The notes under the pieces are model-generated. The model was not told the origin of the DNA. It made no database searches and saw nothing but the letters and a program-made list of their open reading frames with translations. From positions 23,624,001 to 23,688,000 of the forward strand of contig NC_087250.1 of NCBI RefSeq assembly GCF_037042905.1: a stretch of DNA of 64,000 bases, in the 5' to 3' direction. Source of the DNA: Lytechinus pictus (taxonomy: Eukaryota). This document shows positions 1,725 to 64,000 of this stretch, piece after piece. Within the stretch, counting starts at the first letter, position 1. Every line of letters begins with the position of its first letter. The position numbers and the translations under genes were made by a program.

Positions 1725-2094
1725 AAATACAAGCACACACAAGATTAAGAAACATTGATTTACTTTATGTGATATACACCTGTTAATTACTGCCTCCCAA
1801 TGATATCATATCAACCCTTCTTTGAAATTCCCTTCTAGTAAACCAGCGAAGCCTGACAGACTTGGCTTGCTGTAACCATTGTTAGAGAAGTCATACACTG
1901 TTAGAACAGCAAAGGGCTCACCGCCCCCCTAAACAAACAATTAGTAAGAAAGCTCTTTTGAAAGATTTCCGAATGAGTATAAAAAGCAAGAAACGATAAT
2001 GAAAGCAGTGTCGAAATTCCATTGACTACATTCAATGAAATAAAGTTTAGCAAGCCTTACGCCAAATTCTCTCTAGATAATTAGGTCTTTTAAG

Positions 2095-2961
2095 TTAATT
2101 GGCCAATCATATCGCACGGTTCGTTTCACGTGACCCTTGCTCGACCTCGCCGAAGAAACGTCGATTGTCATTGAAGTGACATCAGTATGGTCTGCGTCCA
2201 ATTGAGGGACTAAGTTAAGTATTAAGTTTTTCTCAGAATATGATTATTCGAAAGTGAAATTTTAAGTGTGTGATATTATCATAAAGGTTCAATTGTTGAT
2301 GTGATTTATTTTGTAAAATAAAATCGGGGTAATATACAAATATCAATGAAATATTATCCGCATACATGGATCGCTTACCCCCTATTTGCTTTACAATAGA
2401 TTGTTCCAAACCTAAACCTAGAGGGGGAAAATGGCGCCCACCAATGCAAGGATTAAAGCCAGTTTCAAACAGTGATTTCAACACCTTCTGGTCGTATATA
2501 CTTTAAGTTCAAGGTTCGTATGCATTTTCCATTCATCCTCTGAATACAGTGTATTTTCATTTCAAGATTCTTTGAAATTTACGGTAATTACATACTTCCG
2601 ACGATTCGCATGTCCGTTCGAGATTGAATTGTGTATGGGGGTCGATTTGCAGTTTGTTTATGCATAAGCTATGTGGCTGGCGTATAAACTGCATTGTGAC
2701 GGGATTATAGCATAGCGAACCCCCTATTATACACACCGCTGCGGCTCAGCGTACGCTCATTGCTTTGTAGCGCTATAAATTCGCGATTGTGTCGGGATAA
2801 GTGTTCGATCAGACTAGATTTCATCTTATAATTTTTGTTTCCTGACGCAAGATTCTTGTTGGATATTTACTGACCTTTCCTGTAATTGAATGGATGTATA
2901 TTAGGAGGATATCACTGATCTTAGATTGGAATAATCTCAGGAGTAAAAGGGTAAATTAAAG
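2095..2961 (+). promoter_or_regulatory. Putative BCL9 promoter and first non-coding exon
   Basis: CpG-retaining unique sequence with GGCCAATCA (~2101), CACGTGAC (~2127), YY1-like AAAATGGCG (~2427) and TATAAA (~2683, ~2775). Two tandem donor-like sites, AAGG|GTAAAT (2951) and AAAG|GTAAAT (2962). The link to BCL9 is inferred. Confidence 0.4.
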
Positions 2962-4046
2962 GTAAATAACTGGACATGTTAAAATGTTTCTGTGTGTGAA
3001 TTCCTGGCAGTGCTACTGCTAGACTCTGTTGCTGGAAAAAAAAAGCATATTGATGGGACTGAAGTAAAGAGTGAAGAAGGCTGTAACTGTTTTCTGTAAT
3101 GTTACGTGGTTGTGTCTTTGTTACTAATGGGTGTGATTCATAAAGTGTGAATTTCTCATGTTTGTAAGTAAGATTTGATTTCCTAGGGCTAGGCTAAAGT
3201 ATTGAGCATCTAGACAGGAATAACCGTCGTTTCTGGGGATTTATTCAACAATTTCTGACATTTTACTATAATCCCCATTAACCGACGGTAGGGTATACGT
3301 GTGGGCTCGCATGTGTTCTCATTCCCACCCTTTTGTCACTTCACAGTCCAAAGTTTGATGTAATTTTACACATCGAATTTACAATCTAAGGATGTATAAC
3401 CAACAAACTTTTAAAACTGGATATTTTGTTAACAAAATACTTTAAACGATATAGATGAAAAGGCATGAAAAATTATACTTTACCGATGTTTAATTGGGTT
3501 GAACACGATAAAAAAGGTCAATATGGCAGCCAAACTATGAAATATTTACAAACGAACGGAGAGGGCGTCAACAATCACGAATGTGATATCGATATTGCTT
3601 TCGATATTATACGATCTGCTCCTTATTTGAATTCATGAAAAGGATACGTACACTCTACCTCGGTAATCATATAACGCGAGCGCGTAGCGCTTGCTGGTTT
3701 TTAAAGATAAAATTATCATCACTATTATTTACTATTATTATATAATTATCATTATCGCTAAAATCATTGTGGTTTTTAAATATTATCGTTGTAAGTATTA
3801 ATATTTGTAGTAGTAATATTTCATTATCATCGTTATTATGATTATTATTATTTCATTATTATCATCATCATCATCATTGTCATTATTTTCATTATATATA
3901 TTATCACTATGGTTAAGAGATAAAAGAATAATATTTTTCAGATAAATGTTATAGTAAACTGGTCGGGTTGATAAAATTTCTTGTTTGAAATTGAATTCCC
4001 AATTGGTCATGACCAGTTCCAGTCATTCTCTGATGATGTCGAGTAC

Positions 4047-4708
4047 CAGTGGCGTACCGTGGGTCACGGCATTGGGGGGGGGGGCACCAGCAAAAATTTT
4101 GAGTCATTTACTGGGCTGGCGAAGCGCGCTCAATTGCCAGGTACTGACGTAATAGAAGCATTTTAAGGACTGTTTCATTAAACAGATATGTATCTCACTG
4201 ATTAAATAATGCGAGCGCGAAGCGCGAGCTGAGATTTTTGAAATTCAGACCTGAAGAGGGGCATTCTTAGGCTTGTTTGTAAAAATTCACTAAGGCCATA
4301 CGTATTTCACTTACTAAATTATGCGAGCGCGAAGCGCGAGCTGAAAATTTCTGATAGAGTTTTCAGACCAGTAAAGGGACAATTTTAAGGACTGTTTCAG
4401 GAATTCATGAAGAGCAGACATATCTCACCAGTCCATTGATGCGAACGTAAGCACTAACTGGGAATATTTTATATTCAGACTTTAAAAAAGGGGCAGTTTC
4501 TTTTAAGTAGTCATGAGTGCAAGTGCAAGGAAATACATGTATATGGTTGACTTGAAAACGGAATTTTTTAGTACAACATGATTATATATTTCATCAAACA
4601 GAAATTACGAGCACCAGGAATGATGAACACAATGTCATAGGCCCTTAGCAAAATATGTTTCATAATTAGAGTTATGAAAAAAATATTTATGTAATATAAT
4701 ATATTATA

Positions 4709-4740
<32 letters not shown>

Positions 4741-4895
4741 ACTTAATATAATAGAATATGCACTAGTTTCTTCTTCCTCTACTACGTCTCTCCTTTTTTT
4801 CTCCTTCTTTTTCTACTTTTCCCCCTTCTTTTTTTTGGCCAGCCGATGGGGGGGGGGGCACGTGCCCCCCATGCCCCCCCGTAGTTACGCCACTG
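4047..4895. mobile_element. hAT-like MITE
   Basis: TIR CAGTGGCGTA...TACGCCACTG. Degenerate 8-bp TSD TCGAGTAC/TTGAGCAC. Internal GCGAGCGCGAAGCGCGAG repeats. Confidence 0.7.
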
Positions 4896-5237
4896 TTGAG
4901 CACGTGTTTTACCTCACTTTCATACACTTTCTTTCCCTTCGTTTTTTTCAATCCGCGGCAGCTTTGTCGTGTTATTGACTTTTTCTTGTTCCTTTTCTTC
5001 ATATTCTGATTTTCAAATTCAACCTTTGTCTCTATATACCTTCATTTCGTATCTCTTTTTGTCGATTTCTCTCATTGTCCACCATTCTTGTCCATACCAC
5101 TGAGTCTCCTGCTAAAGACATGTTAAGGCCTATACTTTCTCGCATGTTGCATGTTCTAATTCTTTCTTTCTTTATTGTTGTCATTTTCCTTTGCTTTTTC
5201 ACCTTTCCCATTCCTCCCACCCCGGCCTCTTTCCTCG

Positions 5238-6345
5238 TTTTTGTCTCACCTGCATAGCAGAGTGAGACTATAGGCGCCGCTTTTCCGACGGCGGCGGCGG
5301 CGGCGGCGGCGGCGGCGTCAACACCAAATCTTAACCTGAGGTTAAGTTTTTGAAATGACAGCATAACTTAGAAAGTATATGGTCCTAGTTCATGAAACTT
5401 GGCCATAAGGTTAATCAAGTATTACTGAACATCCTGCCTGAGTTTCATGTCACATGACCATGGTCAATGGTCATTTAGGGTCAATGAACTTAGACCATGT
5501 TGGGGGAATCAACATCAAAATCTTAACCTAAGGTTAAGTTTTTGAAATGTCAACATAACTTAGAAAATATATGGACCTAGTTCATAAAACTTATACATAA
5601 GGTTAATCAAGTATCACTGAACATCCTGCATGAGTTTCACGTCACATGACCAAGGTCAAAGGTCATTTAGGGTCAATGAACTTTGGCCGAATTGGGTGTA
5701 TCTGTTGAATTACCATCATAACTTTAAAAGTTTATGGATCTGATTCATGAAACTTGGACATAATAGTAATCAAGTATTACTGAACATCCTGTGCAAGTTT
5801 CAGGTCACATGATTAAGGTCAAAGGTCATTTAGGGTCAATGAACTTTGGTCAAATTGGGGTATTTGTTGAATTACCGCCATAACTTTGAAAGTGTGTTGG
5901 TCTAGTAAATGAAACTTGGACATAAGAGTAATCAAGTATTACTGAACATTCTGTGCGCATTTTAGGTCACATGACCAAGGTCAAAGGTCAATGAACTTTG
6001 GCCATAATGGGGGTATCTGTTTAATTACCATTATAACTTGGAAAGTTGTTGGATCTTACTCTTGAAACTTGGACATAAGAGTAATCAAGTATCACTGAAC
6101 ATCCTGTGTGAGTTTCAGGTCACATGATCAAGGTCAAAGGTCATGTAAGGTCAATGAACTTTGGCCACGTTGGGGCTATTTGTTGAATTACCATCATATC
6201 TCTATAAGTGTATTGGTCTAGTTTATAAAACGTGGAAATAAGAGTAACCAAGTATCACTGAACATCTTGTGCGAGTTATAGTACTGCTATATGCTGCTAT
6301 ATTGAATCGCGTGATGCAGGTGAGACGGCCAGAGGCATTCATCTT
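5238..6345 (+). mobile_element. Tsp/DINE-1/HINE-like (Helentron-associated) element with ~160-bp internal tandem repeats
   Basis: Subterminal IR GTCTCACCTGCAT (5243) / ATGCAGGTGAGAC (6314). (GGC)n microsatellite. About 6 units carrying AATCAAGTATYACTGAACAT, most also with AGGTCAAAGGTCA. Confidence 0.75.
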
Positions 6346-6862
6346 GTCTTTTCTTCATTTTACCTTTTTCTCTTTTCGCCCTTTTCTCGGTGAAATCCGC
6401 CAGGGCCGGGGCAGCTCCCCCCCCCCCCCCCCCCCCCGGCGCCTGTTACGCCAGGAAGACCAAATGAACAGCCGATAAGACCAATAGGGACTACCAGTAA
6501 GACCAATTGAGTTCACTCAGTCGGATACCAACCACTAAGCCAAAACATCAGTAACAGACTCCAGTATAATTAAGACCAGTTTAAAATCCCAGTTACTATA
6601 GGCCTATTCAATACCAATGACTGGAGCAGTATTATTTGTAACTAGAACAGTATTACCAGACCGATAAACCAATACTCCAATTTCCAGAGTTACTGGTCCA
6701 ACTGGTCAAGTTGATTTTTTTTTCTTGTGGTTAATTTGATTTTCTATTTTTATCATTTGACAGATTATTGTCTTATCTCTTCATTTTGGGCTCGGTAAAA
6801 TGTAGTTTAATGTGTCTATGGACAATCAAGTCTCGAAATGTGTGATTTAAAGAGAAACTTAC

Positions 6863-7193
6863 CCGCCGTTTTTCTGGCTGTGTTTGTGTCGTCACATCTT
6901 TTTTTTGAAGGGGTGTCTGTGCTTGTGGGCTTGTCAGTCGTCTTCGTTTCTTTCGAAGAAATGGCGAAGCATAGCTGGTCACCTTCACCTTCCTCCCCAA
7001 GTAAACATTGATTCTACTAATTTTCTTTAATTTGGATTTATTATTTTTGATCGGGTGTCACTTTAATTCCTAATGATTCGACAGCGTCAGCAGTGGTGTA
7101 ATCACGGTGATCCATTTTTGCATTCAAAGTTCTTCTTTTATTAGGATGATTAGTCAAATTACGGTCACAATTACAACACCAGTAGTCAGACAT
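6863..7193 (-). pseudogene. Frameshifted exon encoding a CxxC- and NLS-containing peptide inside transposon copy 1
   Basis: On the minus strand: ttcattttAG acceptor (7200-7199), ATG 7193, MSDYWCCNCDRNLTNHPNKRRTLNAKMDHRDYTTADAVESLGIKVTP, a frameshift near 7050, then KSKLKKISRINVYLGRKVKVTSYASPFLRKKRRRLTSPQAQTPLQKK...EKRR, then donor CGG|GTAAGT at 6862. Confidence 0.6.
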
Positions 7194-7264
7194 AATTACT
7201 AAAATGAATTAATGAATCAAATAAAATTACCACCAGCAATCAGCACACCTACATGGCAATATAC

Positions 7265-9061
7265 TTTTTTTTAAAGATGTTTTGTTTTTCTCTCAAATCA
7301 AATTTCATACAATGCAGTTAACAAAGTAACAATTGTAAATAATAATTCAAATAAATTTCTTAAACTAGTATACATTATGCACATCATGAAATAATATTCT
7401 CAGACTGCATCGTACCACTACCAGATGAGTTTAACAAACAAATATCAGAGAAAAAACTTATAAAAGTATATGCGTTGCACCTGCCCCCTCCTTGCCCCCC
7501 CCCCTTCCCTCCACAAACCCCCACACTTCACACCCTCAAACATTTTTCGTACACCCTTGCATATGATGCCGCGTTCCGTCTGAAATAAGAAAACACCATA
7601 ATGAACGAACATAATCTCGTGAGCTCTGTCGCCTCTATACTCTTGTAAGGAAATGTTCCCATTTCCTTATATGGTTTGATAATTTACCCCTTGTTACTGC
7701 TAAAATTTTCTCTTCACGTTCATTTTCTAATATCTTCTCTCTAATTTCGTTGGGACTTGGTGGTCTTTTTAGTCCTGCTGTAAACAAAGATCAGATATTT
7801 TATTAAAAGAATAATGTGATTAATTATTTGTTCCTTCCCTATATTAGCATGCTTAACACCAATGTGTATATCCACCCACCTGGCATTTTTTATTTCATAC
7901 ATATTGAATAAGTTACCACAATCTATCCATAAGTCTCTCGTCTTTTCACATGAGAAAAACAGATGCTCGTAAGTTTCTTCAGTATTCCCACAAAATGAAC
8001 ATTCACTATCTGAGAAAATTTTGAATAAATGTAAATATTTCTTCGTGTATATTTACTCATAAAGCATTTTAAATTGAAACTCTCTAAGCCTACTGCTTAG
8101 AGTACATTTTCTGGGTCTTGAAAATATAGCACATATATCTTTTTCGGAGAAATTATATGTCTTATATTATCAAACGCATACGATTTTTCCAATTTAATAC
8201 TTAAAAGTGCCTTGTATATTTTATTAGATGTCACGTTTGGTAAACTGTTAATCTTACCATTAAATATAAATTCTAGATTTAGACCAGTGTCTTCACAATT
8301 GTCTTTTTTCTTCAATAGGTGTTTCCATGTTGCTGGAATATTTTCAAAAACTTTATAAACTTTATCTATTTCATTTCCATCTAAACCCATTTTCAGAAAG
8401 TCTCTTTGCTTCCACCATATAAATAATTTTTTTTATTTTACTTAGAATCTATTTGTAAATTAACATTTACCTGAATTTCTACATCTAATGATAAAGTTAT
8501 TCCTAATATTTTGATAGTTTCAACTAATTTACCAAATGGAACTTTAATATCTTTTGTAGAAAGAGGACCCAACGCTAATATAAATGTGTTTTCTTTATTC
8601 ATTTTTAAGCCTGAAATCTTAGCAAAATCTCCAAATATTTTTCCGATTCTATCAATAGATTGGGAGTCCCTCACAAAAAGTGTCATATCATCCGCATAGA
8701 GCGCTTGTTTGACTTCTACATTACCAAAGCTGATTCCGTGGATGGATTTATCTTTACGAATGGTATTAGAAAGGACCTCGATACAAAGTATAAACAAATA
8801 AGGAGAGAGGGGATCCCCATGTCTCACACCTCTTTCAACACTAAAGTATCCTGTCGATATACCCCCATTAAATACGCAACTCAGGGCATTTTTGTATAAT
8901 GTTTTGATCCAGCTGCAAAATGAGGACCCGAAGCCAAAAGAACGTAAAACGTTTTGCAAAAAGATGTGCGAGACCGAATCAAACGCTTTTTCAAAATCTA
9001 TTGCCATTAAGAAACCAGGTGCATTATTTTGTTGTGTGTAGTAAATCATATCGTCAATCAA

Positions 9062-9063
<2 letters not shown>
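7265..9063 (-). mobile_element. 5'-truncated, internally deleted L1/Tx1-clade LINE
   Basis: RT motifs IDFEKAFDSV, GVRHGDPLSPYLF and YADD in ORF 8438-9061. C-terminal CSFC...EHLFFSC zinc knuckle near 7950-8005. Stops and frameshifts present. Confidence 0.92.
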
Positions 9064-9097
<34 letters not shown>

Positions 9098-9274
9098 AAG
9101 TGCACACCTAGTTACAATAATGCATATAGCATTTACATTTATTTGAAAGCAGGATAAAAGAGCATTGAAGATTAAATGCTTTGCTGACGGGCATAGGTGC
9201 CGCGGCCGGGGATCGTACCCCGGACTTTTTCATGTATAGCCAGGCGCCTTAGACCACTCGGCCACGGCACCTCC
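9064..9274 (-). mobile_element. tRNA-derived SINE with poly(A) tail
   Basis: Head GGAGGTGCCGTGGCCGAGTGGTCTAAGGCG with A and B boxes; 30-nt poly(T) on the + strand. Related copy at ~33635-33772. Confidence 0.85.
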
Positions 9275-9727
9275 TAAATCTAATTGATCTAATACGATAC
9301 GATACACTACACGAAGATAAACGATACTAGTTATAATCGCGATAAATCGAGACATGAAAAAGTTAATAACGATAATGACGTCATTCAAGATGGCAACTTG
9401 CAAGAAAAACCGTCAGGTCAGGTGAAAATGTCTTAGATGACAGATTTCTCAATCATCCAGAGGATTTTTTTCAATAACTCCGGCCCAAGGTATGCAATTA
9501 CTTAAGTTATTTATATTACCCTGATAATGGAAACCATGAAAATGTCAATTTTGCCTAAAAAACAGTTTTAAATCGCGATCTATAAAACGCTAGTTCACTA
9601 TACGTTGGCTGTAGGTAGGGGCCCCCCTCCTCTTCAGTCTATGTATGGTGAGTGGAGCCAACGTAGTTCAGCGGAACAACCAAAATACAGAGACTGAAGC
9701 TTTTGGTCTATTGAGCATCATGCTATA

Positions 9728-10354
9728 TAGACAGGAATAACCGTCGTTTCTGGGGATTTATTCAACAATTTCTGACATTTTTACTGTAATCCCCATTCAC
9801 CGACGGTATTTCTACTAGTGTGTTACTTTAGTGCAAGCCTGCATGTGTAATCACGTCACCCATTCGGAGGACGGGTTTTGTCCAGATTTCAATTTTTTTA
9901 GATTCTAAATGGCATATTATCTTGAACGAAGGCCCACTGTGCACTATTTTCGTTAGGTAAATACATGTACGTCTGTAAGGATGATGACGTCATCCAAGAT
10001 GGCAACTTACGTTGACCAACGAAAGGATCGAAGATGACGATGTTTCGATCATCATTTGAAAGGAGTTAGCGGTAACCATGGTATCTGCTGTCTAAGGTAC
10101 GATATTTCAGAATTTTAAACATTTTTTCGTAAATATGGATGTGATTTCTTTTTCATAATGTGAAATTTTATGTAAAAAAAAAACGATTGGAAAATCGGGT
10201 TTCCGCCGAATGTTAGAGCAAGTTAGATCTAACGTTACTGCTAATACGTTGTCTGTACGTACGGGCCTCCAAGCTCTTCAGTCTATGTATTGGTGAGTGA
10301 GCCAACGCAGTTCAGCGGAACAACCAAAATACAGAGACTGAAGCTTTTGGTCTA
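9728..10354 (+). mobile_element. TAGAC...GTCTA transposon copy 2 (different interior)
   Basis: Same ~80-bp left and ~100-bp right ends as copy 1. TSD CATGCTATA (9719-9727) / CATGCTTTA (10355-10363), one mismatch. Confidence 0.85.
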
Positions 10355-10491
10355 CATGCTTTATTGTTTTTCAGCAAGTTTTCTACTGTCTACAGTGCAA
10401 CCGATGCCGATGGTGCATGTTTGCGTACTAATTTGAACCCAGTCCCAGTCAGTTGAACATGATTATGATAACCCCATTTCACAAAATTGCA

Positions 10492-11311
10492 TAGACCAAA
10501 AGCTTCAGTCTCTGTATTTTGGTTGTTCCGCTGAACTACGTTGGCTCCACTCACCATACATAGACTGAAGGGGATGGGGCCCCGTACCTACAGCCAACGT
10601 ATAGTGAACTAGCGTTTTATAGATCGCGATTTAAAACTGTTTTTTAAGCAAAATTGAAAGTTTCATGGTTTCCATTATCAGGGAAATATAAATAACTTAA
10701 GTAATTGCATACCTTGGGCCGGAGTTATTGAAAAAAATCCTCTGGATGATTGAGAAATCTGTCATCTAAGACATTTTCACCTGACCTGACGGTTTTTCTT
10801 GCAAGTTGCCATCTTGAATGACGTCATTATCGTTCTTAACTTAATGTCTCGAATCGATATATCGCGATTATAACTAGTACTAGTACTAGTATAACTAGTA
10901 TCGTTTATCTTCGGTTTCGTTCGCATATGGAGCAGATCGTATAATATCGAAAGCAATATCGATATCACATTCGTGATTGTTGACGTTCGTTTGTAAATAT
11001 TTTATAGTTTGGCTGCCATTTTGACCATTTAAACATCGGTAAAGTATATTTTTCATGCCTTTTTCATCTATATCGTTTAAAGTATGTAAACATTGGAATA
11101 TCAAGTTTTAAAAGTTTGTTGTTTATACATCCTTAGATTGTAAATGCGATGTGTAAAATTACATCAAACTTTGGACTGTGAATTGACAAAAGGGAGGGAA
11201 TGAGAACACATGCGAGCCCACACGTACACCCTACCGTCGGTAAATGGGGATTACAGTAAAATGTCAGAAATTGTTGAATAAATCCCCAGAAACGACGGTT
11301 ATTCCTGTCTA
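10492..11311 (-). mobile_element. TAGAC...GTCTA transposon copy 3 (820 bp, inverted)
   Basis: Reverse complement of the copy 1 arms joined together. Perfect TSD AAAATTGCA at 10483-10491 and 11312-11320. Confidence 0.9.
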
Positions 11312-11695
11312 AAAATTGCATAACAATTAACATAGCATGTCCAAACTTTGTGCATATTTCAGAAATAGTAATACCCTTCAGTCTCTGTTCAGTGTCCTGT
11401 ACTAAGAATTCTACATGTACTAACCAAATTGAAAATTATTGATGGCAGATAGTTATTAGTAGACTAAAATCTATTATGAAAATGTGAAGTTGATCTTATG
11501 ATTTTTTTTATTTTTGGTTGCATGATAAGTTCTCATTTTTCTTGGAGTTGGTGCCAAAGGTAACAAATTTGCTGTTTTGTCATAATTTTCATAAATACTT
11601 ATCTTTTCTTTGAAGAAATTTATTTTACAGTGTAATTTTAGGTTGTTTTTCATGTTGTTGATGAGAGATTTTCAAGATATTGAATTGTTTTTTAG

Positions 11696-11896
11696 ATATC
11701 TGTGTGAAATGTGGAAACCTGCAAGATTTGGACACGCTGCCATTACCTGTTCATTGCAATGATGGTACTGTTACTAAAAATGTATGGCTTTGTTTTCTTT
11801 TAATATGTATAATGGCTTCATATGTAGAAGAGTCAATCAGAATGTACTGAAATATCTCTAAAAATTGCTTTGGAAAAGAAGAAACCCAACACCAAG
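11696..11896 (+). other. Weak candidate 5'-UTR exon
   Basis: ttgttttttAG acceptor and CAAG|GTGATT donor around unique sequence; no other support. Confidence 0.2.
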
Positions 11897-12337
11897 GTGA
11901 TTTCCCTCAACTAAATTTGTCTTGCCTGGTACGGTACCCTACATGATTAATATAGACTCATACCCCCATGTAGTTTTGTAAACTTTTGTTTGTGAACAGT
12001 GGATGACAAGAATTGTCATGGTGAATTTTTAAAGTAGACAGTGGAACTTTCTTTGTGAGAAATCTGCATGATTTTTAAATTTTCTCCCATGAAAATCCCT
12101 TTATCACAGCAAATGTAAACAAGGAAACATGATCTCCCAAGTAAAGACTGCACTGTTTGCTACATGTAGATATATTGGATACATGTACCAAAATCATCGT
12201 TAAAAAATGTCTTTGGAGACCTTCATACCTTTATACCGCATCTACTGGAAAAATCCAGTTGTGTCTGCAGTCAAGTCTCCAGGTGTATCTTGTACTGTAC
12301 GTTGTCTTCCTAGCTTGGATAAATTGCTATAAATTGT

Positions 12338-21580: not shown

Positions 21581-22357
21581 ACTATAAATTCTGTTTTTGA
21601 AAAAAAAAACTTAACTCATAAATACTGTACATGTATGGTACATTTCATGAAAGTTTGAAAGAATTGAGATGATTAATTTGTAACTGAAACAGATCTAATA
21701 AAATTTGATAAATTTCATACAATTTTTAGAGTTTTGAGTTAATAATTCCTTTGTAACTGAATTAACAGATCTCGTAAAATTTGACAGTCTATAGCAGTTT
21801 GGAAGAGTTTTGAGTTGATTCTTGTGTAACTACATTGATGAGTATGTAGAAAGACATTCGTGTATTCACGTTCCTGTGGGTTTGTTTCTTCTCATTGTGT
21901 TTGGTATATTTGCACATGCCTGTGGTGTGGCTATATGCTCATCTCTTGCTAGTCTAGATCTAGACGTTAGCATTTATTTGTTCGGAAAACCCTACACTCA
22001 CTCTAGTATACATGTACAAACCAAGATACTAGTCTTTAGTTGGAGGAGATGAAAAGTGGGAGGACTTACATTGGTGCGTTTCCTTGCAATGAGTATAGGG
22101 TTTCCCGAACAAATAACTACTATGTCTAGATCAAGACTAATCTCTTGCTTGAAAGAAACTCCCATTGGATGCTTTTACACCTGCTCAATAAGGAATTACA
22201 CTAGGGGGTATCATGAAACAAATATTCAGTTATTTTCTCACTGAGTATTGTTACAAGCTACTGAAATCCTTGCATCTGATTGACTCAGAGCAAATTTTGC
22301 CAGTGAAAATCACTGACGAGATGGTTCATGAAACCATCCCTGGGTCCGAGTGTTTAA

Positions 22358-28692: not shown

Positions 28693-30464
28693 AAAGATGT
28701 TTATTGAAACAGATGTTCATTTCCCCCTTCCAATTCCTCCCTCCACCCTCTCTCAATTGTATTACCCCTTCTCTTCATACACCGTAATCATATACTTTAA
28801 CTCTTTGCACGAATGCACGCTGAATTAATTTTTGGGGAATAATACGATAATGGCAATTGTTTCCATGTTATTTTCTTTGAATCAAGATTTCATTTTTTTA
28901 ACCATTGATACTGATAAGAACTTATGCAATTTATTAGCTTCTCTAATAAGAAGTTAGGGGAGAAAACTAATTAAATTTGCAATTGTTGCATTTAATTGTA
29001 CGAATGTGCAAAATTGCAACATCAGCATGCAAAGGGTTAACAAGACATTGGTCAATCTTCCTTTTCTCTTGTCTCTCCTTCTCCATCCTTCTCTCTCTTT
29101 TTTCTGCCCTCCCCAAAGTTTGCTTGAGTCTCTATACAAAGTCCAAGATGTGTTTGATAACAAATCTTATTTTTTCTCCCCAGTCCTTCCCTTTTTCATT
29201 ATTCTTTCCATTTACTACACTTCTTTCCATCCTTCCTTCCATCCACTCAATATCTTTAGAAATAAACCTTATCAAGGCATTGGTCCTCTATACCTGCCCT
29301 TCTTTCCTCCGCCTCCATCCCCTCCTCCCCCTCCATCCCTCTTTATTTTCTCTCCATTCTTTCCAACCAATAATGATAAATTATAACAAGACATTGACAA
29401 ATCTTGTCCCCTCCTGTCCTCATTCCCCTTCCATTCTCCCCTTCCTTTCTCCTTTACCTTTTTAACAAACCTCTATAATGATAAACTCTAACAAGCCATC
29501 AGCAAATCTTCCACTCACCCTCCCACTCAGTTATACAACACCTAAAAATTGATTATTTTTTTTTCACAAAAGCAATCAAAATATACAAAACATTTGTTGC
29601 ACCTCAATTAAACAGAACATTGATAAAAAACTGTAATTACATAAAAAATATTGTAAATAAATTGTTTTGTACTCGGAATAATTTAACCTGTACACCAGAC
29701 ATCGGACATTTACAAATATATCACTCTCCTTCCCTGTCTTCCCCCTATCTTCCTCCCCTCTCCATCCCCCCTCCCCATTCCTCCTTTACCTTTTAACCTC
29801 TATAATGATAAACTCTAACAAGACATCGGCAAATCTTCCACTCGCCCTCCCATTCAGTAATATTCCTCCATTTCCACCCCTTCCCCTCTTCTCTCCATCT
29901 CACCCTAAACCCGCAACATTGATCCACAAATCTATAGATTGCTTGGGATGCCTTAACTGTCGCTGCCATCTTCCTCTTACTTACTCCGGACGACAACGGC
30001 ATATCAATACACCTCATTTTTTCCCCTCTCTCTCACTCTCTCCCTCCGCACGTGTGAGCCACGACACATTCCCATGCATGCACTTGCATTAGTCGTCCAC
30101 GGACGCCATGCTAGGCAGGCGTCCCATGGTCATCGCCGAGTGTATGAATGTGTGATGTTTTTTTTTCTCTCTCTTTCTCGGTGGCAGTCGCGCATATTTT
30201 GTATGCGGTGCATGGTAGATTGGTGTGTACATACTGCTATGTCCCAGGAGCGGAGAATTCAATACTGGTTGAGATGGTTCAGGGTTGGGAGGAAGAGGGA
30301 TGGAGAGAGAGAGAGAGAGGGGAAGAGAAGGGGATAAAGAGAGAAAGCGGAAGGAGAGAAAGAATGGAGAGGGGAGAGAAGAAGGGGAGAGAAAAAGAGG
30401 GGAGTGAGAGAAAGAGAAAAAAGACAGGTAAGAGAAATAGAGACATGCATGTCGACGTGTAGAA

Positions 30465-33401: not shown

Positions 33402-35011
33402 GTAAGAATCATATTTTTTGTATCATTTGTTTATTTTTTTCCAAGTTTCATCCTTTACTGCTCTGACTGTTGCTATTGTGACAATTTTCAAACCACAACT
33501 TTTTGGAGTTTGATTGTTTTGTTGTCTTTGTGTTGATCAAAGACCCCAGTTAAACATGATTATTTCAAACGTAGAAGAAAAAACTTTTTAAAAAAAAGTG
33601 CACACCTAATAAAAAATACCAAGAACGCATCCATCATTTCCATTTATTTGAATGCATGATTAAAGAGCAATGTCTATGCCTTGCTCACAGACAGAGGTAT
33701 TGTGGCTGGGTATCGAACCCTGGACTTTCCATGTATAGCCAGGTGCCTTAGACCACTCGACCACGACACCTCGAGTACAAGTGTAAAGATAGTTTAGATT
33801 TTGGAATCTAAGTACCAGCATCATGGTTGCACTATTGTTAATGTTACAGAGATCAGGGCCTCGTAACACAAGGGTTGGTGATCAATCGTACGCTTGATTT
33901 TTACGATTGATTGTACATTGTAGTCAATAGGATCAATCGTAGAAAAATGTTCTATGATCATTGCTAAGTTTTGTGTCACGGTCCCCAGGGTGGGTCTAAC
34001 CTTTGGAAAAGGAGGGGCAAAATATTTCTCACTAGCCAAGAAAAAGGAAGAGAAAAAAAATGGAGGGGGGGGGGGGGGTGAGGTCAAAGCTCCGGACCAT
34101 TGGAGGCAATCCCTGTTAGAAAATATTGCCTAAAAAGGGGGGGGGGGAAGGGAGGGGGGGAATAAAAAGTCATAAAGGGAGGAGGGGGGGGGGGGGGGGC
34201 TCTCTACATGATGCCTTTGATCTCAATGTTTATATCATTGGTCCTACATGTAATGTGGGTGGGGTTTTTCCACCAAAACTTCTTCGTCCTTATTTAAGGC
34301 CCACCCACTGCGCCTATGGACCAATGAAGTATAATTTAGATTGTGCATGTACACGATTAATCAGAACTTTTAAGAATTTTGAGATTCAACCCCCATCATA
34401 GTTAGTTTTTTCTTTTTATTCTTAGTGTGTTTTGGTATATTGATATACGGTACTGTTCATTTCTAAAGCACCGTCAGCACAAACATGCATGTACTTCTCT
34501 CGTATATTTATTTGAAAATTGCGTTCAAAGATCACTCCTTGGATTTTATTAATTCTGTTTTGATGTGTTTATGTTTGTTTAAGGACAGACAACATTTGGG
34601 TCCAACGTTCAAATTTGAGTTTATGTCTGAATACCGATTATATTTTGGAGGTTCTTTCAAAGAAACTTTAGAGGTCACTATAAAAAGTGAACCCGTAACG
34701 TAATCTTTCCGCAATAATCAGTAATGAAATATTTGTATTATTAGTGTTTGTTCGTGATTCTTGCAATGTGGGCATGATACATGATTTGTGTGTAAGATAG
34801 ATGGAGAGAGAGAGAGGTGGGGAGTGGAGTGGAGGGGGGGGGGGGGAAGGGGAGCATGAGCATTTTACCTAGTCCCAGGCACAGGCTAATTTCAAACCCC
34901 ATCAATAGACTGTTGATTCCATTTTGGGGCAGTGTCCGAACAGGTTTTACAATTATGAAGGGAAACACAAAATATTTACATACAATCTGCCTATAGATGT
35001 GGAAATAAAGT

Positions 35012-41470: not shown

Positions 41471-41868
41471 AGGGCCGTCTGCACCATCCCAAGTTTTCAA
41501 ATTAGCGCGCTATTTCTGATCCGGCAAATTATCCCGATCTGAACAATCTCGAGATTATTTGTAATGGAGACGCAATTATCGGGCTAGTTCATAGGATTAA
41601 TCTTGAGATTGCAATCCCAAGTCAACTTGGGATTATTTGCAAAATAGCGCGTTATTGTACGAATTAGCGCGCTAATTCGCAGGTGCAGACGCACTCGGGA
41701 TTATTTATTTACGGCGTCAGACCAAAATGCATCGATGCCTCGCTCGAGCAGGAAACGCTCTTGCGATGGTGGAGACGGGGTTTCTTGAATCTCGAGATTA
41801 ATCCCGAAGAGGGCCGATCGGGCTAAAATCTCGAGATTGAGCAAACTCGGGATGGTGCAGCACCGCCT
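41471..41868. mobile_element. Harbinger-like MITE nested in an older MITE
   Basis: GTCTGCACCATCCCAAGTT...AACTCGGGATGGTGCAGC inverted ends. Confidence 0.75.
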
Positions 41869-43644
41869 TATGAAATTAATTAAGAGAAATTTAAAAAGGG
41901 CACTGTGATCTAGGGCTAAACTTTATGTTGTTGGAGGGAAATGTCAACGGATAAACTGATTTTTTAATATTTTTTTTAATAATAACATTTTAAAAGATTT
42001 AAGATTCAGATTAGAAGTTTAGCTGGCCTATAGGGAATCAGTCTTCAGGCACAGACCCTGATTGAAACTTTGATCAACAAGTGGGTCTCCATGCAAAGAC
42101 TAGCACATAAAAAAAACTTGCTGTTAAAGGGTCTTCATTGCACAAGGCATAAGTAGGCTGTACATTCAGACCCTTAAATCGAGTGAAGGGTTTGCACAGC
42201 AGACTAACAGCGAATGGTCAATCTCTTCCTCGTCACTTGAGCTATTAACGAATAATTGTAATTTTATCATTAGAATTCTGGCAGATCTAATTTCCACTTC
42301 ATCTACTACTGGTTAGAACTTTGCAATACAGCTATGAATATTTGGTTCAGTTTTTCTGACCAAAAAGTAGTGTTAGATGAAATGGGCATTTCCTGAAAAT
42401 TGAACAAAATGGTAAATGGTTTAAATTTCAATCAGGTCAAATCAGAGAAAAAATTACATGGGGACTGGGAGCAAATAGCTAAAAAAAGAGCCCTGAGAAC
42501 TAAAACAAAGGGAATGCTGGAAAGCCCCATTTATCATAATGTTAAAGTTTACCCAATCTTGCAGTAAGTTGTGAAAAGTAGCCCCCAAAAATGAAAACAA
42601 AATATTTTTTTCCTGGTGGGTGTTTCATAAAGCTTGTCGTAAGTTAAGAGCGACTTTAAGAACGACTGGTGAATCCTTTTTTACACGCTAAACCATCGCC
42701 AATGAACATTTAAAGGTGAATATCATTTACCATGAGAAAGGATCACCAATCATTCTTAAAGTCGCTCTTAACTTACGAACAGCTTTATGAAACAGCCCCC
42801 TGGACTCAATAGTAATACTAGTACTTGTAGACAAATTCAAACCAGAATTAGTCAATGTTGGATGAGACCAAGAGGATAAAGGGGATGTATACCAAGTGGC
42901 AGTGTTAATACCTTTAAATGAAACCTGAGGGGTGTTTCATGAAAGTTGTCAGCACTGACTAAATTGTCAAAGCTGACAATTTCAGTGAAATCCTTGGTTT
43001 TGATTGGCTGAGAGGCACTAACCTCTGACTATTACCATGGTAACTGTCGGAGAAAGACAAGTTGTCAGTGCACACAGCTTCATGAAATGGCCCCCTAAAT
43101 AGCAACATATATAGGCCCACATGTACAGTAGCTCTGTCTATCCAGGAGGATGAATTGTGAATTTTGTGAGGTGCACACAACTTTGCATTGTACAAGCGAG
43201 TAGCAAAGTGGTGTTTCGTGCTATAGCCAGGGGATGAGTTTCCATTGGCTCATGGTCATACCATCTCCTGCACTTCATGACCCAATTCTAGATCTAGAGT
43301 TTGAGCTTGACCCGAGGGTGCGCTAAGGTCACTGAACTGGATAGACAGTGGCTGAAGGAGGGGTCTGCATTGAGGAAGGGTCAGTTTGTATTCTATGGTT
43401 CTGTTACGTTCAATTTCCATTGGTCAGCCTGATTATTGCAGTACAGGTCATGCTCCATCAGTTATGTTTGAGAAAAAAGTCTTAGTCTTTTCCCTTGGCC
43501 CATGTTTCATTAGGGACTTTCGCTGAACTACACAGACCTAATATTTGACCTATCCTAATCGATCAAGATGAGATTGCAAAAGCTGTACAACATGGACAGT
43601 ACTGTCCTTGGGTTTATATTTGTTTCAAGTTCAACACTCCAAAA

Positions 43645-58131: not shown

Positions 58132-58540
58132 ATGTCAGAAGAACTGACCAAACTCGCCAAATTGGCAAACAGCGCTGCGGGGGACAGTGACCTTGAGCTG
58201 AAGCTTAACACTTCGTTAGCTTCACCCAAGATGAGAGCGCTACACCTCAAGGATGAGATTGGACCGCTTGGGCCACCTGGACCTCCTGGACCACCTCCAG
58301 GAGGGATGAAAATGGAGGAGAAACCTATGAAGATGGAATTGGGAAGTAAGAACACTCAAGGGATGATGAGATTGGACCATATGAAAGGAGGAGGGGGAAT
58401 GGATATGAAGGTGGATGGGATTGCCGCGGTGATGAAGAAGGAGGAGGACGATGCGGTGTTTCTCCGGGATGGGCAGATGAACCAGGTTAATAGTCAGATG
58501 AATAATCAGATGATGAGCAACGGACCACAGGATGATAAAG
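58132..58540 (+). CDS. BCL9: BCL9/legless, first coding exon (MSEELTKLAK...PQDDK)
   Basis: Acceptor ttctctatttctgcAG ends at 58022. ATG 58132 is preceded by an in-frame TGA at 58120-58122. Donor AAAG|GTAGGA after 58540 is phase 1 and joins in frame to the HD1 exon. Confidence 0.85.
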
Positions 58541-58544
58541 GTAG

Positions 58545-58689
58545 GATGGTGATGGTAGTGATGATGGTGGTGATGATGATGATGATAATGATGATGAAGA
58601 TGATGATGATGATGGTGATGTTGATAATGGTGATGATGATGGTAGTGATGATGGTGATGATGATAGTGATGTTGATGTTGATGATGATA

Positions 58690-58775
<86 letters not shown>

Positions 58776-58820
58776 ATGGCAATTGTGATCATGGTGGTGG
58801 TGATGATGATGATGATGATA
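58545..58820. repeat. (ATG)n microsatellite at the start of a BCL9 intron
   Basis: Begins 4 nt into the intron that starts at 58541; includes a long perfect run. Confidence 0.95.
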
Positions 58821-58929
58821 TTGGGATATTATCAATGAAATTTTTTTATTCCTATTAAAGGAATCTTTCAAAAGCGAACTGCACCTTTTAGTCTAGCCAA
58901 TTTCACAAGGAGTGTCTCTTCTCTTTCAG

Positions 58930-59129
58930 GTATGAATATGCTACATCGGCAGGTGGGAGGCTACCCACATCCCCCAAACTTCACAATGCAAGACTCGCAG
59001 CACATCTACACGTTCTCAACGCTGCTAGCCAACAGGGCCGCCCAGGCAGTCTACACCGGTCAGACTGATTCCATTCTGGCCTACCATAGAGTCCAGTCCT
59101 GCAAGAGGAAGTTCTTAGATCCAGAAGAG
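58930..59129 (+). CDS. BCL9: BCL9/legless exon encoding HD1 (Pygopus-binding)
   Basis: Acceptor ctctttcAG|GT; donor GAG|GTCTGT, phase 0. Encodes HIYTFSTLLANRAAQAVYTGQTDSILAYH (59001-59087), matching the BCL9 HD1 pattern VYVFSTEMANKAAEAVLKGQVETIVSFH. Confidence 0.95.
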
Positions 59130-60058
59130 GTCTGTTCAACCAGCATTTTTTTTTTTAAATCATATGATGTAATCCTTTTAAAAAGGTGACTCAACATTTG
59201 CTCCGGGCTTTTTTTTGTTTAAGATGTAGGGTTAGGGTTGCTATAGGGTTTTATGTTGGGTTAAGGGTTAGGGTATAGTGATAAACCCAGGGTTGAAGAT
59301 GGTCATTCCATTACTGTGTGGAATTTACAGCGGAGCAATTGTTGCCGGAGCAAATGTCATGAAACCCTTAAAAAGGCCAGGGGGGAGGGGGCCACCCCTA
59401 AACATTCCCTTTACAAAGCCTAAAGGGAAACACAGAATTCAGTAGTCAACAAGTTCCCATTGCCTGCTGGACACTGGTGATCCTGTCCAAATCCTTGAGG
59501 AATCACATAATTCATAACTAGTCAACATGTTTTTTGTTGCTTACTGGATCCCAACAGGTACAAATACTTTAGGGGGGAATTTCATAATTTATATTTGATG
59601 TTTCAGTGATTTCTATTTTTTTCAAATGTTATGTACCTATGTGTTGCTCTGTACATTGATTGCACAATACTGTTTGACCTGCACATATTTGTAGTTGATT
59701 TGCCAGATTAGCTCAATGAAACATTAAGATCTCATGTGACAAATTCTGTGAATTTAGTTTATTTTGAAAGGAGTACCATAATGTTATGCAACATAATAGT
59801 CCTTTGGGAATTATCATCCCATCCTATCCAGAGCACCTTTCAGAAGACTTGCCATTATGGCAACTTTGTCACGAAGGTAGCTACCATGGTAACATGTCTC
59901 AGCAGCTAGTCGAAATCATGGTTTCCATGGTATGTCATAATGGCAAAGTTGCCATAATTGTAAGTTTACGTGAAATGCCACCTGGATTTGATTGTGCATT
60001 CCACTGGTAAATGTTTATTCTTTGAGAATGAAAACTTGTGTTTATCTTTTCTTCACAG

Positions 60059-61049
60059 GATACTGGAGCAGCTCCTAACCATTCAGGAAACACTGGTCCC
60101 GGCACACCTCAACAGAACAATACACAACAAGGGGTAGATGGGACTACAGTACAAAGTGCCAATGGCCAAAATGGCAAACCAGGAGCCATTGATAGTAGTA
60201 TGGATGGTGCTAGAAAAAGCATTGATAGTTTGAAAGGAAAGAACCCAGGAACACCTCAAAGTGTCCAAGAAGGAGTGGAAGGGAGCGAAAACTCAAGAAA
60301 GACGCCGCTTGAGAGCGGCACGGGGGGCGGGGGAACAACTACGACCAAAGGTAACAAGAAACGCAAGAGACCAAATTCGTCGTCGCAACCGCTTCAGGCG
60401 AACCTTCAAGGTGGCGGCCCTGGAGGACCAATGCAACAGGGCATGCCACCAAGTGGGCCAAGCTTTGGACCGTATGGACCGGGGGCATATCGACCAGGGT
60501 TCCCGCATCAGAACATGCCAATGCGCCCCGCGATGTCGTCGCAGTCGTTCCACAATCAGCCCTCCACAACTGAAACCGAGAACCTTGATCCCAGCGCGTT
60601 GTGGGAGAATCCGCCCAACGTCAAAAAGACAATGACCACCACCATGGCACCGTCCTTCCCACCCGACATGTCACCTATGCGGATGGCATCACCTAACCCC
60701 GCCATGAGGTCGCCGAGTGCAGGACTCGTCCTCGGAAACGAGAACATGGTGCCGCCCTCCGGCCCGCAAGGTCCACGTCCCTTCATGAGTCCTTCCCATC
60801 CATCCCAGTCTCTCCCAGCATCGCCCGTCAACCCTTATGATATGCCGAACTACAAACCACCGCAGCAGATAGACAACCCAACGCCGGAGCAGTTGCGGCA
60901 TCGGCAAGAAAGGTTGAGGACTCTCAAAGAGATGCAGAAGCTCCTGTTTCCTGAAGAACATGGCAGTATGTCTCCATCACCTGGAAGAATGATGTCACCT
61001 ATCGGGATGCCTCCTCCTCCTCAAGATCCTATGGCACAGCAACCTCAAG
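60059..61049 (+). CDS. BCL9: BCL9/legless exon encoding HD2 (beta-catenin-binding)
   Basis: Acceptor ttttcttcacAG; donor CAAG|GTAATC, phase 1. Encodes DNPTPEQLRHRQERLRTLKEMQKLLFPEE (60872-60958), matching the HD2 pattern LSQEQLEHRERSLQTLRDIQRMLFPDE. Confidence 0.95.
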
Positions 61050-61616
61050 GTAATCTATTTTCAAAAGCTATTTTGGAGACAGTGATTTTTCTCTCGCAAA
61101 TATGATCTTTTCCTTTTCTGATTACCTATCATTCTGTTTCAAACTTGATCTAAAATGGACTTTCTGATTTTTATAGAAAATGTACCCAGCAACATTATGA
61201 ATTTTGGTTTGAAAAGGTAAATTCATTGAATTTTTACATGAAATCCAAGGAACCAAAATGAAATTTTCTTTTTGATTTCCAGGTGAACAAAAGATCACCG
61301 TCCCTTCTAATTACTGGGGGTGGTTTCATCAGAACAAAGATGATACAATTAGCCTAATCAGAGAATAATGGACTAATTTTTTTTGCTATCCTGATATTTT
61401 GCTCATAAAGTCAGCCAATGTCATCTTGGACTTATTTCCAGAATATCATGCTAATGCTATTTTGCTGGACATCTTTCCCTGAAGGAAGTCAAGTCCACCC
61501 CTGTAATGCTTAGTGGAGCATGCCACACATTATGTGACCACGCAGCACAATCATTATTATGCCAATTTATTTGTGTGCATTTTCAGTTCTGGTGAAGATG
61601 TAATTCCAATTCAATC

Positions 61617-61891
61617 AGCGTGTTTCTACAGAGAATTGTTAAAAACGGTTTATCTTTTTCAGAATCAAAAAGCTGCAACCTGTTTCTACAGTGCGAATAA
61701 TCCGATTAACTCCGCATTCCAAACGGATTAACACGACAATAACCACCTCCCAGAGGTGGTTGTGAGAAACTGTATTTTGCACGATGCTTTATCAATAAAC
61801 CGCATCGCATCTGTTTCTACAGGGAAGTTTTCCGGAATTTTTGATACTTAGGCGGGTAATACCGTTTAACCATTCTCTGTAGAAACACGCC
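61617..61891. mobile_element. Harbinger-like MITE in a BCL9 intron
   Basis: GCGTGTTTCTACAGAGAAT...ATTCTCTGTAGAAACACGC. Confidence 0.8.
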
Positions 61892-62171
61892 GAATGTCCC
61901 TGATTTCAAATTACCCAGGATCTTTGTAACACTAGAATCTCTTCTGTAGTTTCTTATTGTAAATCTTGCAGCTTGATACTGTACCCTTTCTAATTTGACT
62001 TGATTCTAGATTTCCATGACATTTCTTTTGATGTGCACTGTTCAAACCTGTGAAACCTGGGCCTGGTAACATAGAGCTTGGCGATTGATGGTGGGGCTGA
62101 GTTCTACAATCGATTCCATTGGGTATTTGGTATGATCAGTCGTGAAAACCAGCCCCAAGATTGATCGCTAA

Positions 62172-62321
62172 TACCTTGGTCACATTTGTACTACGGCGGC
62201 TGTAAGGCGAGTCGTAAAAACAGTCGTTTTAACATTTTTTTTGTACCAGCTACATATAGGTGGTTTGAATAAAAATGAAGACTCGCCGTACGGCCGCCGT
62301 AGAACAAATGTGACCAAGGTA
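62172..62321. mobile_element. Harbinger-like MITE with TAA TSD nested in a CWG-type MITE (62059-62343)
   Basis: TAA|TACCTTGGTCACATTTGT...ACAAATGTGACCAAGGTA|TAA. Confidence 0.88.
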
Positions 62322-62422
62322 TAAGCTTCATGTTACAGTACCCAGCTCGCATTTCAGTGAGCTACCCTTCGGAGATGTAACTAACCCAGATTACATTGTT
62401 TGCCCTCCCCCCCCCCCCTCAG

Positions 62423-62617
62423 CGATGATGTCACCGGGTGGAGGTCCCATGATGCGCCCCATGGGCCCCAGCGGTCCTATGATGGGGCCAGGTGGACCCG
62501 GAGGACCACACTCTATGATGCACCAAGGTATGGGACCAGGAATGCATCCCCGGATGCCTGCCCAGGATGGTATGAGGGGTATGAGCCCTGACCAACGCAT
62601 GATGATGGCCAATTCTG
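62423..62617 (+). CDS. BCL9: BCL9/legless Gly/Pro/Met-rich exon
   Basis: Poly-C tract plus ctcAG acceptor; donor TCTG|GTAAGT. Phase 1 at both ends, consistent with the neighbouring exons. G/P/M-rich composition typical of BCL9. Confidence 0.9.
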
Positions 62618-62987
62618 GTAAGTAGAAATAGAATGTAAAATAGGCATTAATTGTTTATATTTACTGGTATTCACTTGGACCATTTCATGAAACTGGTTTT
62701 AATAACAAATTTGCAAAAGCAGTGAAAAGCTACTGAAATCCTTCAATATGATTGGTTATAGTTATTGTTTATGTCATTTTCTGTGTCACTATTTCATAAA
62801 ACAAATAATGCACTTGATCTGTCGTGTGTAGTAAAGGCTTGGTTTGTTTAGATTGTGCACACTGGACATTCACATAAAGGCTTGTTCATGGTGCAGCACA
62901 TTTACACATAAACCTCGCTTACACTGCATTTCCACTGATGCTCTCGGTTCTGTTTTGTAATAGCTATTTCTTTGGCTGTCTTTTCAG

Positions 62988-64000
62988 GGATGATGATGCC
63001 CCCTCTCCCTCCAGACTGGGAAAACATGTCTCCTGCCCAGCGGGAATGGTACAAACTACAACAAGAATTCTACCTCGATAAACGACGCAAAATCATGGAA
63101 GACCAAGCCAAGATGCAAGGACGCATGTCAGATTTTCCTCCTGGGGCCATTGGTCCTGGGCACGGCCCTGGACCAATGAGAGGAGAGCCGATGATGAGTC
63201 CACATCATCCAGGCAGTGGAGGATTCCCAGGGGATGTGATGGGCATGAATATGGGTCCACCACCGCCTTACCCTGCGGGACCTGGTCCAGGGCCGATGAG
63301 CGGAGGACCTCCGGGGCCTGGTCCCGTTCCTGGACCACCGTCGCACGGGATGCAGAGGAGAGCTAGTATGTCAGGGCCGATGCCGCCTATGGGACCTGGA
63401 GGACCAGGTCCAGGGATGGCAGGTGGACCGGGCGGGCCTGGTGGGCCAGGAGGGCCATCAGGTCCAGGAGGTATGGGAGGTCAGATTGGTCCATTTCCAG
63501 AGACACCGCATATGCCATCACCACGCACTAATCGCTCCAGTTCAGTACCGGGTATGCAGAGTGGGTCATCGCAGCCTCCGATGAGTGCAGGACCTGGACC
63601 AATGAACTCAGGCAACATGCCTCCAGGGCCACAAGCTGGTCCAGGTCCCGTTAGTTCTGCCAGCTCCATGTCCATGGCCATGTCTCCTCATGCACCTGTT
63701 GGCAGTCCAATGAAATCAGTTTACAGGGCCCCTACTCCTACAAGCGCAAACACATCGGCCAATCAACCACCCCAACAGAACACTGATCCAATTATGAGTT
63801 CCATGGTGAGAACGCCAGGAAGCGTTGGTCCGGTGGAACAGTCACCAAGGCCAAATCAACCAGGTACCCCTGCTGCCATGGACAACCCTGTAGTCCTACC
63901 AAATGTCTCATCTGTCAATACCCCAAATACCTCCCAGCCTGGTACGCCAAACTCTGTTGTGAACAACACCATGTCAACATCATCTGTACTGCCACCTACC
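62988..64000 (+). CDS. BCL9: BCL9/legless exon encoding HD3; runs off the window end
   Basis: Acceptor gtcttttcAG|GG. Encodes PDWENMSPAQREWYKLQQEFYLDKRRK (63011-63091), matching the HD3 pattern EQIAWLKLQQEFYEEKRRK. The G/P/M/S-rich frame appears open to 64000, which would explain its absence from the ORF track. Confidence 0.93.

Follow-up and report, generated by a model that had tools for sequence, protein, structure and literature searches.

The 64,000-nucleotide stretch of the Lytechinus pictus genome analysed here (assembly GCF_037042905.1, contig NC_087250.1, forward-strand positions 23,624,001 to 23,688,000; hereafter the window, numbered from its first letter) ends in coding exons of the BCL9 gene. 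Near its beginning, past a CpG-rich, promoter-like stretch, three non-autonomous elements of one transposon family, likely of the AcademH group, lie almost side by side. A first-pass annotation of this DNA had described three elements with asymmetric ends, a terminal inverted repeat (TIR) of 5 bp and a separate 9-bp target duplication each, and all of these were recovered where it had placed them:

3202-3210, left duplication of copy 1, TTGAGCATC
3211-9710, plus strand, copy 1, a long family member with nested insertions inside
9711-9719, right duplication of copy 1, TTGAGCATC
9719-9727, left duplication of copy 2, CATGCTATA
9711-9727, right duplication of copy 1 together with left duplication of copy 2, base 9719 being common to both
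9728-10354, plus strand, copy 2, 627 bp, a member of a sister subfamily
10355-10363, right duplication of copy 2, CATGCTTTA
10355-10491, host spacer between copies 2 and 3, with the facing duplications of both
10483-10491, left duplication of copy 3, AAAATTGCA
10492-11311, minus strand, copy 3, 820 bp, a young deletion derivative
11312-11320, right duplication of copy 3, AAAATTGCA

Read in element sense, all three copies start with TAGACAGGAATAACCG and finish with GAAGCTTTTGGTCTA, ends of the TAGAC...GTCTA type in which TAGAC begins six of six termini. The perfect inverted repeat is limited to 5 bp, and 11 of the 25 terminal letters match. Each copy is flanked by a 9-bp duplication, perfect for copies 1 and 3 and with one mismatch for copy 2. 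The one-base overlap of the first two target sites, at base 9719, is as originally reported, and so are the opposite strand of copy 3 and its distance of 137 bp from copy 2, both duplications counted in. The clustering stands; its size had been put at ~160 bp, and the pre-insertion DNA covered by the three targets measures 145 bp. BLASTN with the three elements as queries found no further copy of the family ends in the window, in agreement with the earlier remark that the remaining ~55 kb holds none. The copies do not form a single composite element, as the sequences flanking them on the outside match in no pair. That the insertions were independent is borne out both by the separate duplications and by the lineages of the copies, which are three distinct ones.

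Both ends of the family also carry the motif TT(A/G)TTC at 31-32 nt from the terminus, a motif that follows just 14 of the 1,553 TAG starts in the window, including the ends of the family and of a 190-bp element described below; judged by its position, no ten-base difference between a long and a short end was seen. Inverted pairs inside each end, which we read as subterminal repeats, bring a modest gain in predicted folding (z of -1.2 to -3.3 against shuffles, eight stretches). Elsewhere in the window, a 190-bp TAG...CTA element at 21950-22139 has a perfect 9-bp duplication, imperfect inverted ends of ~50 bp and TT(A/G)TTC at 28-29 nt, and likely represents another Academ-type family.

Comparison of the copies reveals how they are related. 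The outer 413 letters on the left and 400 on the right of copy 1 match copy 3, with 14 mismatches in 380 and 11 in 394 aligned letters, respectively. The ends of copy 2 are likewise close to those of copy 3 (1 mismatch in 80 letters at the left end, 8 in 110 at the right). Its interior, previously described as different, is so in part: it is a distant homolog of that of copy 3, reaching a local alignment score of 72 where shuffled sequences reach 30 +/- 4.5 and at most 54 (n = 300). The homology resides in a 33-bp island and the sequence to the right of it (equalled by 2 of 300 shuffles), whereas to the left of the island it is not significant (158 of 300 shuffles equal). The island is 91% identical between copies 1 and 2 and contains TGACGTCA and CAAGATGGC. 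The occurrence of near-identical ends on distant interiors suggests either end exchange or strong constraint. Copy 3 is young and copy 1 older. In copy 3, 216 letters (10527-10742) are identical to a contig of depth 653 from sequencing run X1, and a flank contig of the same run has 0 mismatches over 550 letters at a depth of 2.3.

Copy 1 without its four nested elements measures ~2,500 bp. These elements are as follows:

4047-4895, small TIR element with CAGTGGCGTA ends and 8-bp flanks with two differences, presumably hAT-like
5238-6347, very abundant repeat of tandem 150-190-bp units with loose ends at 5238 and 6347, which we take to be Tsp/Helentron-like
about 7263-9290, minus strand, 5'-truncated long interspersed nuclear element (LINE) with Pfam RVT_1 and zf-RVT domains
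9063-9274, minus strand, short interspersed nuclear element (SINE) with poly(A), sitting in the reverse transcriptase frame of the LINE

The tandem repeat is missing from the matching contigs of runs X1, X2 and X7, of which X2 and X7 are DNA runs of an organism, here called organism B, that differs from the window by ~5%. For the SINE, three runs show loose ends at 9273/9274, and its appearance, judged by eye, suggests a tRNA-like element; a second copy, 76% identical, occurs at 33585-33772. Among the read joints examined in the sequencing runs (the top 15 of 2,400), run X7 yields a cargo-free form joined from 3602 to 9310 with 33 letters between. As these 33 letters match the sequence that flanks the LINE on either side, the LINE was inserted into family sequence. 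A mini-derivative joined from 3268 to 10300, found in X7 and X2, keeps ~58 and ~55 terminal letters with 9 between them in X7, and from this retention of the termini we conclude that the ends are needed and the interior is dispensable. The segments 4927-5223 and 6347-6795 have a counterpart in organism B at single-copy depth, ~6% divergent and without the 5238-6347 insert. The possibility that copy 1 carries captured host DNA, as in Pack-type elements, was dropped, its interior being family sequence and a remnant of a transposase gene:

7193-6851, minus strand, broken 5' remnant of a DUF6589-type transposase gene, inside copy 1

The remnant consists of two frames, 7193-7044 and 7051-6851, which are consecutive pieces of one protein start; ~20-25 codons, a second cysteine pair among them, are lost between the frames, and the whole stops after ~150 residues of its relatives. 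A phmmer search of 1.84 billion proteins returned two hits, the L. pictus protein XP_054748412.1 (P0003; E 8.8e-5) and P0004 (E 5.5e-4), and the second frame aligns further along both; a word-index search with a 50-residue piece of the remnant gave no match. A longer relative of P0003 from L. variegatus (P0005, 1031 aa, 86%) matches DUF6589 at E 2.7e-23 and, in a tblastn search of the window, finds the remnant as its sole strong match (E 5.7e-14). P0005 is one of four Lytechinus proteins (P0005-P0008) with a DUF6589 domain that are 93-99% alike across two species and have a PHD-like finger inside the domain and catalytic motifs that look degenerate; they are possibly a domesticated Academ transposase.

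We take DUF6589 to be the transposase of AcademH and the core of Academ elements, and TAG...CTA termini to be an AcademH trait, which the ends of the copies fit. The AcademH lineage of Academ DNA transposons was reportedly defined by Kojima in 2020. It is cited in PMC10045372 and PMC10799480, the former giving target duplications of 9 or 10 bp. From the remnant, the ends and the duplications, the family is very probably of the Academ/DUF6589 type, and the three copies are non-autonomous elements, likely of the AcademH group. The initial preference for AcademH over Mutator-like elements (MULEs) thus gains a DUF6589-type coding remnant, although the helicase expected under that label was not seen: the 18 translated frames of the three copies contain none, as expected for deletion derivatives. 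Nor do these frames contain a MULE domain. MULEs have long TIRs and a ~9-bp duplication, and non-TIR MULEs exist. Assignment to MULEs, which would alter the family label alone, can appeal to the 9-bp duplications, which we take to be shared with MULEs, and to a preference for gene 5' ends, but the coding remnant belongs to the DUF6589 family, and we consider this assignment very unlikely. No DUF6589 loci were found in viral contigs, and neither an Academ-DUF6589 link nor any target bias or clustering of Academ elements was described in the literature searched, outside of which lay subscription papers and Repbase Reports.

The island shared by copies 1 and 2 forms part of a promoter-like module:

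9376-9495, plus strand, TGACGTCA and CAAGATGGC followed by a donor-like AAG/GTA, in copy 1, facing its right end
9985-10101, promoter-like module in copy 2
10808-10826, minus strand, promoter-like module in copy 3

We take the two motifs to be a CRE and a YY1 site. In both copy 1 and copy 2 the donor-like AAG/GTA lies ~100 bp beyond the island. The module may be the promoter region of the parent element, placed between a leftward transposase gene and a rightward gene since deleted. In copies 1 and 2 it is oriented like BCL9 and could supply alternative first exons.

The host setting of the cluster comprises the following features:

2050-2860, plus strand, CpG-rich, promoter-like stretch with a CpG observed/expected (o/e) ratio of 1.26, a candidate first exon of BCL9
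58132-64000, plus strand, BCL9 coding exons, first ATG at 58132 (Pfam BCL9, E 5.3e-10)

The start of BCL9 is placed by tblastn with a Diadema protein (P0001) that aligns from its first residue, the two BCL9 proteins being 75% identical. With the three elements excluded, 2050-2860 is the most CpG-rich part of the window (99.8th percentile of CpG o/e). It contains CCAAT boxes, an E-box (2127), a YY1-like site (2428) and, near 2513, a donor-like site. Mean CpG o/e over 11321-58000 is 0.51, as would suit a first exon with a long methylated intron behind it. The stretch is a putative BCL9 promoter. The original proposal that the insertions adjoin such a promoter is right as to the gene, which is real, although its first coding exon begins at 58132.

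Three observations on this setting stand apart. A long GAT/ATG microsatellite at 58500-58790, after the first BCL9 coding exon, keeps the frame open as poly-methionine and is most likely intronic. CpG-rich DNA also occurs at 41.2-42.0 kb, where a segment at 41471-41880, whose ends are imperfect inverted repeats and whose interior contains palindromes, is, by eye, probably a small TIR element rather than a promoter. Finally, flank contigs of organism B from X2 and X7 stop aligning at 3090; X2 has no depth at 3091-3145, and one X7 contig (record 15) continues for 487 letters past 3090. That organism may have lost the target region or have other DNA in its place. A host element bracketing the targets was looked for, and no convincing ends were found.

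How unexpected three insertions in 145 bp are depends on the size of the family. As a proxy for copy number, summed contig depth at eight element positions was divided by that of single-copy contigs in runs X2 and X7, giving 128-1,682 times single-copy depth; this suggests a family on the order of a thousand copies, although a depth ratio is not a true copy number. When copies are spread evenly over a genome taken to be 850 Mb, 0.0004 triples within 145 bp are expected at 3,000 copies, 0.015 at 10,000 and 0.39 at 30,000; confinement of insertions to 2% of the genome yields ~1 triple at 3,000 copies. No family copies turned up when viral contigs (1 and 79 loci), metagenome contigs (2 loci) and prokaryote genomes (2 loci) were scanned for the end motifs, comparison of the elements with sequence sets L001-L082 by BLAST gave chance matches of 18-35 letters only, and Rfam had no match in the window. 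The cluster is real and non-random, and chance is an unlikely source of it.

If the family were far larger and evenly spread, chance or selective retention could be invoked: the depth ratios come from organism B and are not copy numbers, and 0.39 triples are expected at 30,000 copies. That many copies would, however, place ~1.9 more in the other 55 kb, where none is seen, and the depth ratios peak near 1,700 per position, so that we regard this explanation as improbable. Even less probable is local hopping from a neighbouring donor, which the first-pass annotation had offered. Such hopping is established for several DNA transposons, but in its simple form it fails at this locus, no copy deriving from a neighbour: the copies differ in length, in interior and at 3-7% of aligned letters, and none can be the donor of another, while copy 3 is identical over its 216 letters to a high-depth contig representing sequence abundant elsewhere. 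A donor since excised may still have been the source. With too few copies for chance and with simple local hopping failing, a regional attractor is needed.

A separate candidate for the cause of the hotspot is the target sequence itself. Base 9719 is the centre of a palindrome, AGCAT-C-ATGCT, and targets 1 and 2 are mirror images, so that the earlier statement of unrelated target sequences is only partly right. Across four sites, with that of the 190-bp element as the fourth, CA occurs at positions -3/-2 in five of eight half-sites (post hoc P of 0.007, or 0.011 with the geometry retained); in the cluster alone (n = 3) it occurs in four of six (P 0.023). The resulting motif is CAN-(9 bp)-NTG. 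The site of the 190-bp element reaches 3 of 4 for it, a score shared by 5.4% of positions, and two of the three cluster targets reach just 2 of 4. CAT-C-ATG would provide the right half-site of target 1 and the left half-site of target 2, thereby accounting for the one-base overlap. That this motif alone makes the hotspot, for which one could cite the mirror-image targets and the palindromic motifs that, according to PMC2577343, predict the spacing and hotspots of P elements, is nonetheless improbable: the motif is common, the 145 bp contain 10 positions scoring at least 3 where 7.9 are expected, with no local enrichment, and half-site density there is at the 90th percentile.

As a regional attractor we propose chromatin a short way into a transcribed gene from its 5' end, a reading to which we give about an even chance of being correct. 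On this proposal, the three copies would have come from other parts of the genome on separate occasions, copy 1 early and copy 3 last, moved in trans by a DUF6589 transposase and its helicase partner. Chromatin of that kind, likely in the first intron of BCL9, would draw insertions, and the weak palindromic motif would pick the exact base. A PHD finger like that in the relative of the remnant might perhaps draw the enzyme to such chromatin: residues 728-785 of P0005 match the ING2 PHD chain at E 0.0025, placing the finger inside DUF6589, and a PHD occurs in 14% of the Atlas cluster nearest to P0005.

Several observations weigh against this proposal. The targets lie ~340 bp past the CpG-rich stretch in DNA with a CpG o/e of 0.10 (2860-3210) and 0.19 (11321-12320), and such CpG-poor DNA looks like methylated gene body rather than an open promoter. 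An RNA run of organism B has a depth of ~1 at 2448-2796, from ~3 reads whose first mates are nearly all on the minus strand; no splice joint appears among the joints listed for it, and the BCL9 ATG is 55 kb from the promoter-like stretch. The promoter-proximal open chromatin invoked by the first-pass annotation is plausible, with a CpG-rich stretch 340 bp upstream, targets in CpG-poor DNA and RNA support of ~3 reads. The 190-bp element, whose ends are of this type too, is located ~11 kb farther into the intron, so such elements are not confined to gene 5' ends. The CAN-(9 bp)-NTG motif is weak and was found post hoc at four sites, and a single locus cannot establish a genome-wide bias. As to the enzyme, P0005 is 42-48% identical to the remnant and is a distant, probably domesticated relative; the best Pfam PHD match in its group has an E of 0.79, in one of four members. 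Judged by its motifs, P0005 looks catalytically degenerate, and of what we take to be the three H3K4me3-cage residues it keeps one, a W, with the Y and M replaced.

The main competitor to targeting by gene 5' ends is that the resident copy 1 attracted the later copies, through end-bound transposase or its outward-facing module, in which case the host promoter would matter at most for the first insertion. Copy 2 lies 8 bp off the right end of copy 1 and copy 3 lies 137 bp off that of copy 2; both later sites are on the side faced by the TGACGTCA/CAAGATGGC module, which precedes the next target by 333 and 488 bp, and this module is the 91% island in an otherwise distant interior. Yet copy 1 need not have preceded copy 2, and it is copy 2 that has the sole imperfect duplication; no family copy is found inside the 6.5-kb copy 1 or at its left end; and the activity of the module is a prediction, the RNA depth from such repeats being unstranded. 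We therefore consider self-seeding possible, at perhaps one chance in a few. A combination, in which a PHD finger in the DUF6589 core would dock the transposase on promoter-proximal nucleosomes and inserted modules would then seed one-directional stacks, is proposed by analogy and is rather doubtful.

The CAN-(9 bp)-NTG motif, the regional hypothesis and the candidate reader domain are concrete proposals for a group whose target rule is undescribed in the literature searched, in which no paper on Lytechinus and BCL9 was found either. If the bias toward gene starts is true, a family on the order of a thousand copies keeps bringing promoter-like modules and splice donors to the 5' ends of developmental genes in sea urchins, among them BCL9, which encodes a Wnt co-activator; if it is false, the cluster is an ordinary nest of non-autonomous transposons.

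Comparison with known systems places these elements closest to AcademH, with which they share 9-bp duplications, TAG...CTA ends (presumably an AcademH trait) and a remnant of a DUF6589-family gene (by the link that we assume). They depart from it as non-autonomous copies without a helicase remnant, and their ends have 5 bp and TT(A/G)TTC in common. The RAG2 PHD finger in RAG serves as the analogy for the proposed PHD-guided Academ transposase, and no other PHD-guided DNA transposase was found in the literature searched. The 9-bp duplication is also that of maize Mutator. Repeated independent insertion near a gene 5' end is a further likeness to Mutator, which, according to bioRxiv 10.64898/2026.05.18.725947, places 85% of its insertions at gene 5' ends that make up ~1.8% of the genome; Mutator differs in its transposase family and end structure, and the sites described here, known from one locus, are CpG-poor and lie past the promoter-like stretch. 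With the P-element model of Drosophila, as given in PMC2577343, our sites share a symmetric motif three bases past the duplication, with the information mostly at the outer positions, but the 8-bp spacing of P elements reflects the two strands of one site, whereas here two sites overlap by one base. Gene-start hotspots are known for Mu and P, and the locus described here adds a real, non-random cluster of non-autonomous, likely AcademH elements.

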